Part shown: one piece after another, positions 36,362-43,784 of the stretch | Layout of the letters: each line of letters starts with the position of its first letter | Numbering within the stretch: the stretch's first letter is position 1 | Origin: Vulcanimicrobiota bacterium | Lineage (GTDB): Bacteria; Vulcanimicrobiota; Vulcanimicrobiia; Vulcanimicrobiales; Vulcanimicrobiaceae | NCBI GenBank assembly: GCA_963777315.1 | Contig: CAVZQC010000004.1 | Location: 864,001 to 928,000, forward strand | Direction: 5' to 3' | DNA length: 64,000 nt | Notes under the pieces: model-generated | Database searches by the model: none | What the model was told of the DNA's origin: nothing | Seen by the model: only the letters and a program-made list of their open reading frames with translations | Program-made: the position numbers and the translations under genes

Positions 36362-36789
36362 AAACGTTCGTCGGGCTGTTCTTCAGTTCGGCCGTTTTCG
36401 GCGCGACGATTTCCATCGTCTACTGGTTTGCCTCGCGCGACTACGCCGGAACGCTTATGCTGGGTTTCATGTTTTGCGGTTTGGGCTTTGCGGCGGGCTA
36501 CGCTATGCTGGCCGAAAAACACTCCAATCTCGAGGGCGACGATCCCAAACTGCAGCACAAGGCCGCCGCATCGCAAGACGTGGGTATCGTAACGAAGGAA
36601 ACGCCCTGGCCTGCCGCGCTTGCGTTTAGCATTCTCTGGTTCTTCATCGGCCTCGTGTGGTCGGATTTCATGCTCTTTACCGGCATTGCGGCCATACTGC
36701 TGTGCCTATGGCGTCTGGGAGCCGAAAGCGCTCGCGTCGGCGAGCAAGAATCCGGGATGATCGACGAGCATTCCCGCCGGACCCGGTAG
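36358..36789 (+). CDS. ctaF: cytochrome c oxidase subunit IV (actinobacterial CtaF type)
   Basis: YW...D.AGT..L, WP motif, hydrophobic; follows ctaD with ATGA overlap. Confidence 0.75.
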   Translation: MKTFVGLFFSSAVFGATISIVYWFASRDYAGTLMLGFMFCGLGFAAGYAMLAEKHSNLEGDDPKLQHKAAASQDVGIVTKETPWPAALAFSILWFFIGLVWSDFMLFTGIAAILLCLWRLGAESARVGEQESGMIDEHSRRTR

Positions 36790-38955
36790 CGCCCGCTCGG
36801 GACGCTCACTGCTGCTCGTAATGCGCTCTATCGAACCGATGAAGCCGGCAGCGGCAAACGCATCCCCCTGCAGCGTCTGCGCGACCTGCGCGCGCGCGCT
36901 CGCTGCAGGCGGCGCGGGATATCCGTCGCAGCGCGAAGCCGAGATAAACCCGAACGACTGTGCCTTGCGCAAACTCCACCACCGGCGAACGTTGTCGGAG
37001 GTGCCGTAAACGACTTCGTACTGCAGATCCGGTTTTTCGACGCCCAGTTTGACGAGCTGCACGAAATCGGCGGGGCTGAGCCAAATCCCTTCGTCGACCG
37101 GATGCTCGGGTTTCGCGCACACGTGGCCGATGCGAATGCAGAAGATCTCCAATCCGTATTTGTCGGCGTACAGCCGCGCGAGCGCCTCACCGAACACTTT
37201 GCTGACGGCATACAGTCCGTCCGGACGCAGGGGTGCCGTTTCGTCGATCTTCTGCTCGCGCGGATAGAAGCCCGTAACGTGGCCCGTGCTGGCAAAAATC
37301 ACTCGGCGCACGCCTTCCAAACGCGCTGCTTCCAGCACGGTGTACGTGCCCCGAACGTTATGATCCAGCAGTTTGTCGAAGGGCGCCTCTTTCGAGATTG
37401 CGCCCAAGTGCAGCACCGCGTCCATGCCGCGCACCGCTTTGCGCATTTGACGCAGGCGCCGGATGTCGGCGCGTACGAACTCTTCGCCGGGAAGCGGATT
37501 CGCAACCGGCCCGACGTCGCTCGATCGCAGCGCGTACAGTTGGCTGAGCGGCTTGCGGATGAGCGTGCCCACTGCGCCGCCGGCGCCGGTGATCAGCAAG
37601 CGCGGCCGGCCATTGGCCGGCATCGGCGCAGGCTTGGGCGCGCGCTTGCGCCTGCGCGCGAGCAGATCCTTGAGCACGTTGCGGAAGGCTCGCAGATCTT
37701 GCCGGCGCACGACCCAAACCGCCGACGGCCGGTATCCGCTCAGCCGGCAGAACCACCACGTGTTGAACGATGCCCCCACCAGATACGTCGCACTCGATGC
37801 CAATGCTGCGCCGGCCATTCCCATGCGCGGAACGAGCACCACGCAGCCGGCGACTTGCACCGCAATCATCGCCACATTCACGACCGTCACGATGAGCGGC
37901 CGTCCAATCTGGAAGAGAAAGAACGCTGCGAACGTTCCGGCCGAGGTAAAGGCGACGATGCCGGGCAGCAGCCAGCGCAGCGGCGCCGCAGCTTCGGAAA
38001 AGCGCGTGCCGTAGATGTGGTCGATCAGCCACGGTCCGGCGATGAACGATACGATCGACGCGCACGCGGCAACCGCGACGGATATGCGAATCGTTCGCGC
38101 GGAAATCTCCGCCGAAGTTCCGCGATCGCTTCTGCCGATCTCTCGAGTCACGGCCGCGGTGACGGGCCGCGTGAGCATGAACAGCATCTCGCCGAACGAT
38201 ACGGCAATCGAATAGATGCCGAACGATGCGAAACCCAGCATTCCGACGAGCACGAGCGAATCGACGCGATAATTCAGCACTCCCAGCGCGGAGTTGAGCG
38301 CGGACTGTCCCCCCATCCTCACGACGTCGTGAAGTTGCCTGCGCAAGTCCGTGCGGTGCAGGCGCCCGCCTTGACGCACGGCATCGACCACGACGATCGC
38401 CGCGAAAGCGTACGTAACGGCGATCCACGCGCCCAGCACGCCCGCAATTCCGGCATGCGCAACGAACAGCGCTGCCGCAACCGCCGCAAGCGTTGCGGCC
38501 GAGACCGCCACGGTCTGATAGTTCATGCGCTGCATGCGTCCGGTTGCGATGTAATATGCCGGCTGCCACGCAAAGAGGATTGCGCCCGGAGCGACGGCGA
38601 CTATCGCGATCGTGACGACCGTCCAGCCGCGCAGCGCGCTCCAAACGATCATGCCGGCCCATAAAGCTGCCGTCAGCGCGAGAAACGCAACGGTGAGCGC
38701 GGGAAACAGCTGTCGCATGTTTCGGCGCTCCTTGGTCATCAAGAAGACGATGGCCGCGCCCGCGCCGCTGCTGACCGCCAGCGGAACGGCCAGCATGGTT
38801 TGCACGCCGCTGTACACGCCTTTTCCGGCCGGGCCGAGCATCTTGGCGATGATGATGCCGACCACGACGCTGAGCGCGACGCCGGCCGTGCGCGCAACGA
38901 ACGTGCCTATCGCATTTGCGCCGATCGTGCGCGCGTCCGCCGGTGCGTCGCTCAT
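36706..38955 (-). CDS. Wzx/MOP-type flippase fused to an NAD-dependent epimerase/uronate-dehydrogenase-like SDR domain
   Basis: LGPAGKG.Y, NYRVD, GIYSIA, MAGAALAS in the multi-TM N-part; then LLITGAGGAVG, RPDGLYAVSK, WLSP.D, YGTSDN. Confidence 0.8.
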   Translation of the reverse strand: MSDAPADARTIGANAIGTFVARTAGVALSVVVGIIIAKMLGPAGKGVYSGVQTMLAVPLAVSSGAGAAIVFLMTKERRNMRQLFPALTVAFLALTAALWAGMIVWSALRGWTVVTIAIVAVAPGAILFAWQPAYYIATGRMQRMNYQTVAVSAATLAAVAAALFVAHAGIAGVLGAWIAVTYAFAAIVVVDAVRQGGRLHRTDLRRQLHDVVRMGGQSALNSALGVLNYRVDSLVLVGMLGFASFGIYSIAVSFGEMLFMLTRPVTAAVTREIGRSDRGTSAEISARTIRISVAVAACASIVSFIAGPWLIDHIYGTRFSEAAAPLRWLLPGIVAFTSAGTFAAFFLFQIGRPLIVTVVNVAMIAVQVAGCVVLVPRMGMAGAALASSATYLVGASFNTWWFCRLSGYRPSAVWVVRRQDLRAFRNVLKDLLARRRKRAPKPAPMPANGRPRLLITGAGGAVGTLIRKPLSQLYALRSSDVGPVANPLPGEEFVRADIRRLRQMRKAVRGMDAVLHLGAISKEAPFDKLLDHNVRGTYTVLEAARLEGVRRVIFASTGHVTGFYPREQKIDETAPLRPDGLYAVSKVFGEALARLYADKYGLEIFCIRIGHVCAKPEHPVDEGIWLSPADFVQLVKLGVEKPDLQYEVVYGTSDNVRRWWSLRKAQSFGFISASRCDGYPAPPAASARAQVAQTLQGDAFAAAGFIGSIERITSSSERPERALPGPAGMLVDHPGFLLADASAFGSQTP

Positions 38956-40070
38956 CGGCGATACCACGACGGACAACCGGCCGCCGCGAGTCCTGTGACG
39001 AGGCGCCCGGCCGTTTTCATTCCCGTAAGCACCCGGCCTTTTGCGCTCCGATCGGCCAGCACCGCATTGGGAACGGCCAGCCGAGTCGACGGCCCGAGCA
39101 CGCGGCCGCCGTTGCCGAACCAGGCGTCCGTAAATTGGGCGCGCGCCCGCAGGTACGCCGGAAGCGCCTCTCGGCGCATCGTCCACGATACGAATCGCTC
39201 GACGGCGGCGTCCGTCGTAATCTCCACTCCCGCCATGCGCGCGGCCAGCGCTAAAACCCCTTGCGTGCCGATCGGCTGAATCCGTTCGTTCGCAAGCTGC
39301 GACTGCAGCGCCCCGACGAGCTGCGGATCGGCGCGAAGATCCATGGCGAGCAGCACGGCATCGTAAATGCGGTACAAGCCCGCTCCGTGCAGCACCATGT
39401 GCAGTGCGCGCGCAAATGCGTCCAGCCGAAGCGTCGGCCCCGCCGCACCGTCGACTTGCTCGAAATGGCCGCACAGCGCCGGCCAATCCGTCTGCAGAGA
39501 AAACCATCCGGGCGGAGTGAGCGCGACGTGCAGCTCGACGCTTTTGCCTGCGCCCGGAGCGACCAGCGGAACCAGATGGTGATGGCGGCGCGCATACGAG
39601 TCGAATGCGAATGCCGTGTCCCTTTCGGGGCGATAGCCGCAAGCGGTCAGCGCTTCGAAGGCCGCCATCGCTCGTTCGCGCGGAACGAGCACGTCGAGGT
39701 CCAAGATCGTGGTCCACTGCGCCATCGGATCGCCCGCGTACAGCCGCGCGCCGGTTTTGAGCAGTGCGTGCTGGATGCCCGCGCGGTTGAATTCGCGCAC
39801 GACGTCCGCCAGCTGCGCGCCGATCGAAAAGCTTTGGACGATCGCGCTCTGCGCGTGCGGCTTGAGCATCGTCAGCAGCGGCGCCAGCGATCGGTCGCGA
39901 AGCTTGGCGGCGACGATCCCGTGGGAAAGCATTCCGGCGCATTTGTGACGGACCGCTTGCGAGAACAGCCGTTCGTGGGAAACGTTCCTGAGCGCGGCGT
40001 CAAGCCGATTGGGCTGCTCCTGAACGATGGCCGTCATCGCTTCGACGAGCGTTTCGAAGGCGCTCTTCAT
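38952..40070 (-). CDS. nucleotidyltransferase family protein (NTP_transf_5-like)
   Basis: ALLKTG...LY...DLDVLV, VELH, MVLH, YD. Confidence 0.8.
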   Translation of the reverse strand: MKSAFETLVEAMTAIVQEQPNRLDAALRNVSHERLFSQAVRHKCAGMLSHGIVAAKLRDRSLAPLLTMLKPHAQSAIVQSFSIGAQLADVVREFNRAGIQHALLKTGARLYAGDPMAQWTTILDLDVLVPRERAMAAFEALTACGYRPERDTAFAFDSYARRHHHLVPLVAPGAGKSVELHVALTPPGWFSLQTDWPALCGHFEQVDGAAGPTLRLDAFARALHMVLHGAGLYRIYDAVLLAMDLRADPQLVGALQSQLANERIQPIGTQGVLALAARMAGVEITTDAAVERFVSWTMRREALPAYLRARAQFTDAWFGNGGRVLGPSTRLAVPNAVLADRSAKGRVLTGMKTAGRLVTGLAAAGCPSWYRR

Positions 40071-40549
40071 CGTGAAACCCGCTCTGCAGCGATCGGAATT
40101 TCGCGGATACGTCCCTGCACAACGGCTTGCGGCCCTTCGAGCACCTTTCCGTGTAGCGTTACCCAAGCATGGCCGCGCAGGCGCTCTTCGAGCCGGTCGC
40201 GATGCTCGATTCCGAAGTGCACGCCCAACGCGGCATCGTCGGCATCCAGGAAACGGTACAACGTGAGCGCGCGCACGTAACACGTGTTGTGCCGTGCGAA
40301 GATCGGAACGCGCAGACAGAGCGCGCGCAGGCGCGCGATGCGTTCGTAGGAAAGCCGCGGCGACTTTACGATACGCCCTCGCGCCGCACGCAAATTTGCC
40401 AGCGTGATGCGAAGATCGCCGCTGCGCAGCAGCGCCGGAACGGCCGCGATGAAGGCTCCCACGTGCAGCGCGAGCAGCAAGTCGGAAGGTTCGTGCACGA
40501 ACACGCGCAGGCGCTGGTAGAATCCGAGCGGCGTCCATTTGTTCGCCAT
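40067..40549 (-). CDS. lasso-peptide B2-type leader peptidase (transglutaminase-like)
   Basis: CYVRAL, LGVHFGI, GHAWV catalytic Cys/His pattern. Confidence 0.82.
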   Translation of the reverse strand: MANKWTPLGFYQRLRVFVHEPSDLLLALHVGAFIAAVPALLRSGDLRITLANLRAARGRIVKSPRLSYERIARLRALCLRVPIFARHNTCYVRALTLYRFLDADDAALGVHFGIEHRDRLEERLRGHAWVTLHGKVLEGPQAVVQGRIREIPIAAERVSR

Positions 40550-40554
40550 ACGCG

Positions 40555-41427
40555 CTACCATCGCCGCCGCTCGCGAAGGTTATAGTATGCGCGCAAAAAG
40601 CCCGCATGCTGCGCCGCTCCTCGAACGAACCGGCCGCGCCGCGCGAGCGCCGCATCTCCTTTGCCCGGAAGCGCGGCGGCGGCGGCTTGCCATGCGAGCT
40701 CGCCCAGCGCGCGCAGCTCCTTGTGAACCGTCCAGCTCGTTTCATTGTGATACGCGAGCATGAACTGCGCGTACCCTATGCCGTAAAAGTATTGCTGGCG
40801 CCAGTATTGCCCCCACTGCGCGCGGTGCCGGTGCAGTACCAGCGCGCGGGGCTCGTACGCAAATGCGTTGCCGTAGCGTCTTCGCAGCCGCGTATGCAAA
40901 TCGCAGGCGTCGTACGTGGTGTAGCGCTCGTCGAAACCGCCGGCCTCCAGCAAGCAATCGCGGCGGTAAACGATATTGGCCGAGGGAGCAAACGGATACG
41001 TCGGATGCGCGAGATGGCGGCCGGCGTCCAAACCGCCCATGAGGTCGACGAACCGCGCCGCCGGGGTGTGCGAGTCGATGCCGACGGTTTTGCCGGCAGC
41101 CCCCAAGGATGCCCGGTCGGCGCACGCCGCCAGCAGTCGCTGCAGCCACGCGCGTGAGGGCACGCAGTCCGCGTCGGTGAACGCGACCCATTCGCCGCGC
41201 GCCTCTCGCATGCCGCGGTTGCGGGCCGCGGGCGCGCCGCCGTTGCGCTGCGAGATCAGACGCACGTCGAAATGCCGCGCGACGTCGGCGGTCCGGTCGG
41301 TGGACCCGTCGTCGACGACGACGATCTCGAACTCGCTGCATGTCAGCGTTTGGGTTTTCAAGGCGCGCACGCACGCCGCCAGCGTGCCGGCGCCGTTGTA
41401 AACCGGAATCACGACCGAGGCCTTCAC
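40555..41427 (-). CDS. glycosyltransferase family 2
   Basis: SVVIPVYN, VVDDGSTD, AARN, FTDAD, GGFDE. Confidence 0.92.
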   Translation of the reverse strand: MKASVVIPVYNGAGTLAACVRALKTQTLTCSEFEIVVVDDGSTDRTADVARHFDVRLISQRNGGAPAARNRGMREARGEWVAFTDADCVPSRAWLQRLLAACADRASLGAAGKTVGIDSHTPAARFVDLMGGLDAGRHLAHPTYPFAPSANIVYRRDCLLEAGGFDERYTTYDACDLHTRLRRRYGNAFAYEPRALVLHRHRAQWGQYWRQQYFYGIGYAQFMLAYHNETSWTVHKELRALGELAWQAAAAALPGKGDAALARRGRFVRGAAQHAGFLRAYYNLRERRRW

Positions 41428-42326
41428 GTCCACACCCTGCGGCGGCGCGTGCGATACGCCGCCCAAAAGCCCAGCCAAAAGTTGCGCGTCCACAAGCTTT
41501 GGTAGTGAAAGAACTCCAGACGATCGCCGGCACCGCTGCCTGCCGCAGCTGCAATGCGCGCGAAGACCGGGAGCGTAACGCGGCTTGCGAGCATCCAGGC
41601 CAAATGCGCGCTCTTGGCGAGATCCCAACGCAATTCGTCGGGATAGCGCCGATACAGGTCGGCGGCTCCTTCGCCGTACGTCCAAGCCTGACGCGCGAGC
41701 GCGTCGTCCGTCGCACGAGTGCGGTGGTACAGCACGGCACGCTCGGCGTACGCGATCGGCGTGCCGTATGCGCGCAGAATACGATGCGAAAAATCCACGT
41801 CTTCGCCCGTGGACAGATCTTCAGGCCATGCACCCACCGCAAGCGCCGCTTCACGGCGCACCGCCAAATTCAGCGACGGCGCGAACGGAAACGGCGTACG
41901 GCGTATCGCGCGCAGCGTGTCGTACAACCCCGACGCCTGAACGTAACGTTCGGCGGGAGTACTGGGCGGATAGCACAGGGTGTTGCCTGCTACCAACGCC
42001 ACGCTCGGATCGGAAAACGGCACCAGCATTTCGCGCAGCCACCGGCGGCTTGGAACGGTGTCGGCGTCGAGATGCGCGACGATCGAACCGCGTGCGGCGC
42101 GCAGACCGCGGTTTCGCGCCGCCGACGGCCCACGGGTGGTTTCGACCAGCACGGCGGCACCCAGACTGCGCGACACGGCGCCCGTGGCGTCGGTCGACCC
42201 ATTGTCGACGACGATCAGCTCGAACTGCGGAGCACCGGCTTGTGCACGCAGCGCCTTGAGGGCTTCGCCGATTGTGGCCGCGGCGTTGTATGCGGGAATG
42301 ACCACGCTGACGATCGGTTCGGTCAT
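41424..42326 (-). CDS. glycosyltransferase family 2
   Basis: SVVIPAYN, VDNGSTD, SAARN, LDAD, GEDVD. Confidence 0.92.
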   Translation of the reverse strand: MTEPIVSVVIPAYNAAATIGEALKALRAQAGAPQFELIVVDNGSTDATGAVSRSLGAAVLVETTRGPSAARNRGLRAARGSIVAHLDADTVPSRRWLREMLVPFSDPSVALVAGNTLCYPPSTPAERYVQASGLYDTLRAIRRTPFPFAPSLNLAVRREAALAVGAWPEDLSTGEDVDFSHRILRAYGTPIAYAERAVLYHRTRATDDALARQAWTYGEGAADLYRRYPDELRWDLAKSAHLAWMLASRVTLPVFARIAAAAGSGAGDRLEFFHYQSLWTRNFWLGFWAAYRTRRRRVWT

Positions 42327-43315
42327 AGCACTGCATGCTCGAAGATCGGCAGCCAGGCGCGATCGCGGTAAGCATCGTCGCCGACTTCAAAGATCACCCC
42401 GCGCAGAGTCGCCGCACAGCGCGCGGCGCCTTGCAGAATTTCGCGCGCCGCGTCGCGGTCGTTCGGCATGACGATCTGCTTGAGCAGAGTGGGCAGCACT
42501 TCGCCCGATTCCATGGCCGTTGCGCGCGCCGGCTGCGCGGCGCCCTCACGCACGATGCGTACGATGTGCGTGGCCACGGCGTCGGCGATCGCGCCTCCCG
42601 GCACGATGCTCTCCACGCCGACGCGCCGCTTTTCAGTCCATGCCGAGTAGCGCGGCAGGTCTTCGAGATCGTCGATTGCGGAAAACCAGGAAGCGGTGCG
42701 CGGGTGAAGGTTGAACGTTTGCAGTAATCCGATGAGGTGCGATGACTGCAGCCCTCGTCCCAGCAGCAGCTTGTCGTCGCCCAGCGTTTGCCAGCCGTTG
42801 CACAGCAGCGCCGTCGTCAGCGTGCTTTTGCCCCCGCCCGATGGAGCGCACAGGATCGCGCACCGCCCATCTTTGGCAACCGCCGCACCGTGCACCGGCA
42901 CGAATCCTTCGCGGCGCCAGCCCACGGTGCACGCCAGGCCGAGCAGATCTTCCATGTCGCCGATCTCCGGCTCTCCAAAGCGCAGATCCGGTGGAACGGC
43001 AATTTTCCAGCAATCCGATTCAGCTGTGCTGCACGCGGCCGTTATGCCCGATGCCGTCGATGCGACGTACGCATCGCCGTCGCGGTCCACGTTCATACGG
43101 GCGCATCGCAGAAACGAACCGGCTGCGCGCGCACCCTTCGAACCGCGCGCGATCCACACGTCCACTCGACGGCGAGCGCGCATGCGCGCGCTTCCGAACA
43201 AGTCCAAATTCTGCAGCGCGACGGCGGCAAGCCGGTCGTCGCCGGTGTGCACGATCACTTCCAATGGACCGCAATAGCGCGGCTGCATCGGCGTGACGCG
43301 CTCGCGGGCGATCAT
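42323..43315 (-). CDS. HPr-kinase-related P-loop kinase
   Basis: VHGAAV, SGGGKST, LGDD. Confidence 0.8.
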   Translation of the reverse strand: MIARERVTPMQPRYCGPLEVIVHTGDDRLAAVALQNLDLFGSARMRARRRVDVWIARGSKGARAAGSFLRCARMNVDRDGDAYVASTASGITAACSTAESDCWKIAVPPDLRFGEPEIGDMEDLLGLACTVGWRREGFVPVHGAAVAKDGRCAILCAPSGGGKSTLTTALLCNGWQTLGDDKLLLGRGLQSSHLIGLLQTFNLHPRTASWFSAIDDLEDLPRYSAWTEKRRVGVESIVPGGAIADAVATHIVRIVREGAAQPARATAMESGEVLPTLLKQIVMPNDRDAAREILQGAARCAATLRGVIFEVGDDAYRDRAWLPIFEHAVL

Positions 43316-43321
43316 GTTGCG

Positions 43322-43732
43322 CTACTCGGCTAGGGGAATGCTGGGATCGAAGGCGCTGGTGACGAGCGTTTGCAGCGGCTGCGCTTGGCGCTTCATCTCC
43401 GGCGCGACCCACGGCTGCGCTTTGTGCCCCGCTGATGCTTGCGCCGTGGGCGCTGCCTCCACCAAATTCTCGCGCTCGAGCTCGGCCAAGAATTGACGCA
43501 CGGAACCGTCGTTTGCGGGCGCTCCCCACAGGCAGCACTGCTGCTCGATTTGCTCTGCGGTCGCACCGTCGGTTTCGAACAATTGCGTGATGGCCCACGC
43601 GCCGGCGTTGAGATGATAGAAATACTTGGTTTCGAGATCGAGGAGAACGGCGCCGTCTTCAACCACCGTCGCCACGACGGTCGGCCGCAATACGAATCCC
43701 CCTGTTTCCACAAGCGCACAAGAAACCGCCAC
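43322..43732 (-). CDS. PqqD/RRE family protein with C-terminal leader/core-like extension
   Basis: VLLDL....Y.LN..AW.I and V..FL.EL..ENLV RRE pattern; tail WVAPEMKRQAQPLQTLVTSAFDPSIPLAE; GAGG RBS. Confidence 0.82.
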   Translation of the reverse strand: MAVSCALVETGGFVLRPTVVATVVEDGAVLLDLETKYFYHLNAGAWAITQLFETDGATAEQIEQQCCLWGAPANDGSVRQFLAELERENLVEAAPTAQASAGHKAQPWVAPEMKRQAQPLQTLVTSAFDPSIPLAE

Positions 43733-43778: not shown

Positions 43779-43784
43779 ATTATA
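43779..43784 (-). promoter_or_regulatory. putative sigma70 -10 element of the RRE operon
   Basis: Perfect TATAAT 46 nt upstream of the GTG in an AT-rich stretch. Confidence 0.5.

Follow-up and report, generated by a model that had tools for sequence, protein, structure and literature searches.

A seven-gene Vulcanimicrobiota cassette in which an RRE protein carries its own precursor-like tail, and its likely role in making a linear phospho-glycopeptide

The window, the whole stretch of DNA analysed here, comprises 64,000 nucleotides (nt) of a Vulcanimicrobiota bacterium (assembly GCA_963777315.1, contig CAVZQC010000004.1, positions 864,001 to 928,000). It contains a cassette of seven minus-strand open reading frames (ORFs), all in one direction, that span 43732–36706. 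A first-pass annotation of this DNA had assigned them to a recognition element (RRE) for peptides made by ribosomes and modified post-translationally (RiPPs), a kinase, two family 2 glycosyltransferases (GT2s), a B2 peptidase, a nucleotidyltransferase and a flippase. All of these families were recovered, and gene 7 was found to hold a short-chain dehydrogenase/reductase (SDR) as well. The features are listed in gene order.

43779..43784, minus strand: TATAAT, possible −10 element, from sequence, with no matching −35
43322..43732, minus strand: gene 1, RRE-precursor fusion of 136 aa (RRE at about aa 12–92, variable linker 93–107, leader-like segment, core)
43364..43411, minus strand: leader-like segment W108-x-x-P111-x-M113 ... 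L123, from conservation in homologues and a predicted strand
43325..43363, minus strand: predicted core from V124/T125 to E136, with Ser126, Asp129, Ser131 and an invariant terminal Glu
42323..43315, minus strand: HprK-like peptide kinase, H142-K163-D180-D181, from family scan and motif
41424..42326, minus strand: GT2 'a', D87-A-D and G-E-D-V-D at 174 (PF00535)
40555..41427, minus strand: GT2 'b', D85-A-D and Y-D-A-C-D at 172 (PF00535)
40067..40549 (alternative start 40561), minus strand: lasso-type B2 cysteine protease, C90 and H127 (PF13471, NF033537)
38952..40070, minus strand: NTP_transf_5 nucleotidyltransferase, D124-L-D126 (PF14907)
37651..38955, minus strand: MOP-fold flippase domain of gene 7, aa 1–435, from structure model and orthologue Pfam matches
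36706..37620, minus strand: uronate-dehydrogenase-like SDR domain, in-frame behind the flippase (family match E 2e-53)

The intergenic gaps were 6, −4, −4, +5, −4 and −4 nt in gene order, which bears out the annotated layout of 4-nt overlaps and 5–6-nt gaps. The +5 value applies to the B2 start at 40549 and becomes −7 with the start at 40561. The TATAAT noted ahead of the cassette is present at 43784–43779, 46 nt upstream of the first start; the same hexamer occurs 112 times in the 2.83-Mb genome, and no site including a −35 element passed the promoter scan. Overall GC and third-position GC of the cassette resembled those of neighbouring genes. The annotated bounds, ctaF and tsaD, were confirmed by an empty site in a congener (G001, 93% complete). 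There, 18 nt separate the stop of ctaF from the start of tsaD, and the cassette is therefore a discrete 7.1-kb unit. Over its last 84 nt (36706–36789), gene 7 runs into the end of ctaF, which is encoded on the other strand; no terminator-like site was found in this overlap.

Gene 1 scored 23.2 bits for PqqD in the family scan, against a cut-off of 23.4, and matched only 'PqqD family' clusters in the ESM Atlas. The nearest solved relatives of its RRE were the lasso B1 proteins TbiB1 (E 1.5e-12), TfuB1 and PbaB1. Its tail reads W108-V-A-P-E-M ... S126-A-F-D-P-S-I-P-L-A-E-stop, and conservation among the best 120 of 740 protein matches was 99% for W, 94% for P, 96% for S, 98% for F, 99% for D and 99% for the terminal E. 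Since the tail had served as bait in these searches, they were repeated with a tail-free RRE profile on loci chosen by their kinase. An RRE was found upstream of the kinase in 25 of 30 loci, the window's own included, and all 25 RREs end SAFDPS(I/V)PL(A/V)E-stop. The five misses comprised two at contig edges, one with 765 nt of flank, one beside a distant kinase and one real miss (L164, within 1.5 kb). The real miss comes from G029 alone, an unpublished genome, as are G077 (L045) and G388 (L165); these three otherwise enter the counts as single rows, and nothing else depends on them alone.

Mean column conservation reached 0.88 for the core, against 0.61 for the leader, 0.60 for the RRE and 0.27 for the linker. 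Across 110 distinct DNA tails, there was free variation in synonymous codons and in the stop codon, of which all three kinds occurred; thus, the constraint acts on the peptide, and an RNA element as the cause of tail conservation was ruled out. Position +15 from the Trp was V, I or L in 109 of the 110 tails, and the only invariant columns in a 111-sequence alignment were D, two P and the terminal E. The AlphaFold2 model of gene 1 showed the RRE fold and an ordered leader, with a predicted local distance difference test (pLDDT) score of 77–84 over residues 101–120 and a strand at 113–115, followed by a poorly ordered core (pLDDT 54–63). The ordered leader in this model fits docking in cis on its own RRE.

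The first-pass annotation saw no stand-alone precursor. None exists as a separate gene because the precursor-like peptide forms the C-terminal 29 residues of the RRE protein, where it had been overlooked. No second copy of the tail motif was found in the own genome. Shorter RRE-tail forms gave nine matches, all single sequences and eight on contigs <1.6 kb; they are probably cut pieces, and there was no sign of a regular stand-alone precursor among them. The 73 pattern matches on viral contigs included no relatives. The own genome also encodes a second, tail-less PqqD of 97 aa (L027:7851-8144, G000:C2), with no cassette or RiPP neighbours seen; the adjacent genes are presumably transketolase-like and ribosomal protein S15-like. 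Elsewhere, an orphan RRE (L024:14515-14934) has a tail broken just after the WxxP motif and no kinase or other cassette genes nearby; it is, judged by its sequence, a decayed cassette copy.

The kinase matched HprK_rel_A at E 2e-12, under the family cut-off, and its H-K-D-D motif was kept in 83 of 85 homologue matches. Both GT2s had MftF as their best NCBIfam match, with 163 bits for GT2 'a' and 179 bits for GT2 'b', and fell short of the equivalog cut-off (TIGR03965, >280). Ten further cassette GT2s scored 133–179 bits on the same model. Nine neighbouring GT2s belonging to other contexts gave 103–108 bits in two cases and missed E 1e-20 in seven. GT2 'a' and 'b' form two separate orthologue clades with different acceptor-side motifs. 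The B2 protease exceeded both the PF13471 and NF033537 cut-offs, and its residues C90, E115, H127 and W129 were invariant in 21 of 21 aligned sequences. The motif pattern used for the nucleotidyltransferase missed 15 of 59 matches, and no family-wide motif claim was based on it.

Gene 7 encodes 749 aa, a flippase fused to the SDR. The protein itself gave no flippase Pfam match; Polysacc_synt was matched by eight of 14 aligned orthologues. The model of residues 1–435 (pLDDT 85.7) had WzxE as its best match (E 1.7e-9), with a template modelling (TM) score of 0.71–0.75 and 17% identity to PDB 9g9n, and MATE drug exporters scored nearly equally. The flippase alignment profile found no match among PDB sequences. 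The domain thus shares the fold of Wzx flippases such as WzxE, and that of the cassette differs in being fused to the SDR. Flippase and SDR share one frame in seven of the eight loci holding both parts, so the fusion is no assembly slip. Sugar-oxidising enzymes recur beside the cassettes, namely the uronate-dehydrogenase-like SDR (window 36706–37620), Gfo/Idh/MocA proteins and SMP-30 gluconolactonase (examples at L067:15788-18127 and L149:10372-12810), hinting at a sugar-acid building block. Other fusions were found as well. In L110 and L119, B2 and the nucleotidyltransferase are fused, and B2 runs without a stop into a MOP-type transporter at L098:2754-4919 and L123:11935-14082. On sequence, these fusions would tie the cassette parts together. 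Orthology of the window flippase to the L123 transporter was ruled out (match probability 5%).

Loci were collected from genomes (48) and metagenomes (72), and both tail and RRE were scored in 111, with the window counted among them. Genes were counted on the 50 loci with at least 6 kb downstream, leaving out 61 shorter ones; 43 of the 50 belong to the main family. These 43 are not independent, as some are kin and two genomes contribute a pair each. The annotation called for a synteny check, and the gene set held up: kinase, B2 and at least one GT2 were present in 43/43 main loci, and at least two GT2s and the nucleotidyltransferase in 41/43 each. Ser126 was 96% conserved where kinase and B2 were present. 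The flippase, listed as a cassette part, is indeed in the window but is not core, since the window type occurred in 16/43 loci (the dehydrogenase in 9/43) and the closest relative's cassette has none. Among 57 + 13 chosen ORFs scanned, other Wzx-like proteins replace it in L050, L051, L069 and L052, and ABC transporters in L046, L061, L068, L110 and L112.

The host records cover Eremiobacterota, Acidimicrobiia, Alpha- and Gammaproteobacteria, Deltaproteobacteria/Binatia, Chloroflexota, Terriglobia and Gemmatimonadales, all as uncultured assemblies, and the closest named matches were from Eremiobacterota/Vulcanimicrobiota. The distribution is patchy, with kinase matches in 28 of 401 phylum-sample genomes, the own genome and one distant 27% match counted. 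Distance correlations between component trees were moderate (0.34–0.79 over 36 loci) and do not establish co-evolution, as kin share history. Two genomes carry two divergent cassettes each (L044/L059 and L041/L058), one with rearranged gene order.

The claim that no lasso cyclase is present was upheld by the hidden Markov model search of the own genome and of 41 carrier genomes. In the own genome (89.9% complete), the only PF00733 match was a 20.7-bit partial one in a protein that we take, from its motifs, to be the tRNA thiouridylase MnmA. No asparagine-synthetase-like match above 35 bits was found in 21 of the 41 carrier genomes, the own genome among them; such genes are present in the other 20. 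The lasso-cyclase cut-off (NF033535) was reached in none of the 41, the best score being 249 of 525 bits. These genomes are incomplete assemblies, in which a single absence is weak and the tally is not. If a cyclase were required, half of the carrier genomes would not lack one.

The closest known system is the linear polyphosphorylated peptides (LPPs, 2026; PMC13381572), with lpp clusters that are cyclase-less, lasso-type phosphopeptide systems. The annotated interpretation is thus only partly supported. Shared features are an RRE, a kinase resembling HprK, an NTP transferase, the missing cyclase, the link to polysaccharide genes and a [Y/W]xxP leader whose aromatic residue is followed 18 residues later by the acceptor Ser. 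The LPP leader has Tyr at −16 and a polyphosphorylated Ser at +3, which are 18 residues apart, as are W108 and S126. A single Ser receives two phosphates from the LPP kinase, and the LPP clusters are located within capsule loci (PMC13381572). The LPP motif YxxPxVLxHQxIxFETxxS is not matched, and the spacing of the aromatic residue, Pro, +5, +8 and Ser agrees. BsfA has Tyr −17, Ile −2 and pSer +3, and Ile or Val at −2 is tolerated in Bsf (PMC10368454); LPP Thr −1 and BsfA Ile −2 are comparable to cassette position +15. In contrast to the cassette, with its RRE-fused precursor, near-invariant core, lasso B2, two core GT2s and hosts outside Bacillota, the LPPs as described have a separate precursor, a variable core, an SpI-type serine peptidase, no core glycosyltransferase and hosts in Bacillota. 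They also use an MsbA-like exporter, whereas the cassette has a MOP flippase in the window and ABC exporters only in some relatives.

The cassette also shares the B1-type RRE, B2, H-K-D-D kinase and PF14907-type transferase with DxD with the pseudomycoidin (PMC6993621), bsf (PMC10368454) and paeninodin (PMC9266682) clusters. It differs from such phospho-glycosylated lasso clusters in having no macrolactam synthetase, separate A gene or ABC exporter, and in having a GT2 pair and a MOP flippase. With MftF (PMC7491314), it shares a type of GT2 by which a RiPP-derived molecule receives an oligosaccharide; MftF has about 470 aa against about 300 aa for the cassette GT2s, which fall far below its cut-off, and the cassette contains no radical-SAM or other mft gene. 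Of the lasso-cluster features, the B1-type RRE and a B2 with Cys-His are present, and the macrolactam synthetase and separate precursor are not. A lasso ring closes on Asp or Glu at position 7–9, and no single register of the tail gives both such a residue and Thr, Ile or Val at −2. A Wzx/Wzy locus is defined by an initiating transferase, a polymerase and a chain-length regulator. No initiating phosphoglycosyl transferase, polymerase or chain-length regulator was found among the seven cassette genes, the rest of the genome not having been searched. By analogy, the cassette may work like an LPP system or the tailoring half of pseudomycoidin, yet it lies outside both memberships, with no cyclase on the one side and no SpI peptidase or separate precursor on the other. 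Its gene content suggests that the retained leader protease and the fixed GT2 pair set it apart and would place the whole route in one unit. No description of the cassette or of a natural RRE-precursor fusion was found in the literature searched, with supplements and subscription papers outside its scope; the proteins may already be included in the data sets of RRE-Finder (PMC7470986, PMC12710340).

From these comparisons, we consider it likely, with modest confidence, that the cassette makes a linear, phosphorylated and glycosylated peptide of 12–14 residues, derived from the tail at the C-terminus of its RRE protein. The WxxPxM leader would dock in cis on the RRE, and the HprK-like kinase would phosphorylate Ser126, possibly twice, with Ser131 as an alternative site. 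The PsmN-like nucleotidyltransferase would enable addition of the first hexose to the phosphate, and extension of the sugar chain would fall to the MftF-like GT2 pair, whose acceptor motifs differ. This proposal draws on the requirement of PsmN for hexoses on the pseudomycoidin phosphoserine (PMC6993621) and on the role of MftF, the family that both GT2s match best, in oligoglycosylating the RiPP-derived cofactor mycofactocin (PMC7491314). B2 would cut about 15–16 residues past W108 and free the core. Because the LPP and BsfA registers align with W108–S126 and position +15, the cut is placed after L123 or V124 (13- or 12-mer), a predicted site uncertain by 1–2 residues. The calculated monoisotopic masses of the candidate cores are 1458.76 for a start at L123, 1345.68 at V124 and 1246.61 at T125. 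The MOP flippase may export the product, and the fused dehydrogenase probably supplies or alters a sugar acid.

Several observations weigh against this proposal. A sister clade with an HDEPLH tail lacks the Trp at 0 and has Ser or Thr at +18 in four of 13 loci and at +23 in none; among its well-flanked loci, B2 was found in 0/4 and the kinase in 1/4. The clade keeps FDPxLPLAE (as FDPQLPLAE), three to four GT2s, the nucleotidyltransferase and a Gfo/Idh/MocA oxidoreductase, so GT2s can accompany a tail without a hydroxyl. Three near-identical loci, L079–L081, combine an intact H-K-D-D kinase with a core without Ser or Thr, L131 has Asn at +18 beside its kinase, and a neighbouring kinase is missing in L113. 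The exporter varies between cassettes, with none in L029 and L042. The GT2 scores leave the sugar and acceptor to be assigned by analogy, and docking in cis draws on pLDDT and one predicted strand. Deletion of LppN was without effect in the LPP study (PMC13381572). On the other side, Trp, Ser, kinase and B2 were lost together in the HDEPLH clade, which supports their link, as one event only. Loci of this clade (L078, L079, L083, L090, L092, L134, L143) often carry a D-2-hydroxyacid dehydrogenase, and their nucleotidyltransferases miss the DxD pattern.

Because hydroxyl-less tails occur in the HDEPLH clade, L079–L081 included, two other readings keep some weight. The tail may be a carrier whose Ser-diphosphate mimics a lipid-diphosphate carrier; an oligosaccharide would be assembled on it by the nucleotidyltransferase and GT2s and moved outward by a Wzx-type flippase or ABC exporter, the glycan ending on the cell surface. 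We regard this as unlikely. The best match of the flippase model to WzxE, a lipid III flippase, would suit it, yet MATE drug exporters match nearly as well. Substitution by unrelated Wzx-like flippases or ABC transporters and the varying number of glycosyltransferases (1–4) over a hardly varying core are also consistent with a carrier, as are the diphosphorylation of one Ser and the capsule-locus setting of the LPPs (PMC13381572). However, the cassette is a free-standing insert between housekeeping genes without polymerase, ligase or chain-length gene, some cassettes lack an exporter, and the core is not lipid-like. A more specific version, a shade more doubtful, is that the self-presenting RRE-peptide with a diphosphorylated Ser126 is a scaffold for an oligosaccharide built by the nucleotidyltransferase and MftF-like GT2s, released by B2 and exported by the WzxE-type flippase. 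The other reading, which we hold to be quite unlikely, moves the chemistry from serine to the invariant Asp129 or the terminal Glu136, with the tail acting like an acidic carrier protein of the LysW type. It would explain the restriction of invariant columns to D, two P and the terminal E, although these residues served as search bait and their invariance is inflated except in the kinase-chosen loci. The serine-less cores beside intact kinases, the recurring NAD-dependent oxidoreductases and a distant RRE-tail family with Asp at +18 point the same way. Against it stand the conservation of Ser126 alongside kinase and B2, the absence of any ATP-grasp ligase seen, and the action on Ser of the characterised kinases of this HprK-like type (PMC10368454, PMC13381572).

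So little variation in the core is unusual among RiPP products, and distant relatives (P0160, P0230) carry tandem RRE-tail repeats. Both would suit a tail that serves for docking or auto-inhibition, filling the RRE and arranging the enzymes into a complex for another substrate. We judge this very improbable, as the intact leader protease in 43/43 loci, the Ser at the LPP register and the disordered core fit a substrate, and the own genome yielded no other copy of the motif. The least probable reading, with hardly any weight, is a lasso peptide cyclised in trans. If W is set at −15, a paeninodin-type register, L123 would be the first core residue and Asp129 would be residue 7; the lasso-type RRE and B2, the invariant Asp and the 20 carrier genomes with asparagine-synthetase-like genes would agree with this. 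The tally of carrier genomes, half of them without such genes and none reaching the cyclase cut-off, already makes it unlikely. The linear phospho-glycopeptide is therefore the reading we favour.

A separate RRE-tail family ends YxxPxLxxYxDMxxLLxLDP(IH..V...GWP or PMP), has Asp at +18 and includes members with two to three tandem RRE units (P0160, P0173, P0182, P0192, P0208, P0224, P0230, P0239 and others; L149:5896-8559). In a quick RRE tree, the main-family RREs formed one clade (SH-aLRT 96) and this LDP-tail family another (95). One member on a Crinalium plasmid is followed by a nucleotidyltransferase, an HPr kinase, an FkbM methyltransferase and glycosyltransferases; no B2 match was found in this 16-kb locus (L149).

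Stated open questions in the field are the role of the nucleotidyltransferase in the pseudomycoidin, Bsf and LPP clusters, the final LPP product and the placement of these clusters among glycosyltransferases (PMC13381572, PMC6993621). The cassette bears on all three, with sharp bounds, a built-in substrate and glycosyltransferases known by co-occurrence within 7 kb. A natural RRE-precursor fusion explains why precursor hunts fail, and some of the oversized PqqD proteins that carry no other annotation (21% of PF05402 matches, PMC12710340) may be such fusions. If the carrier reading were true, it would provide a peptide-carrier route to exported glycans and explain why kinase, nucleotidyltransferase and RRE modules cluster with polysaccharide genes across bacteria.

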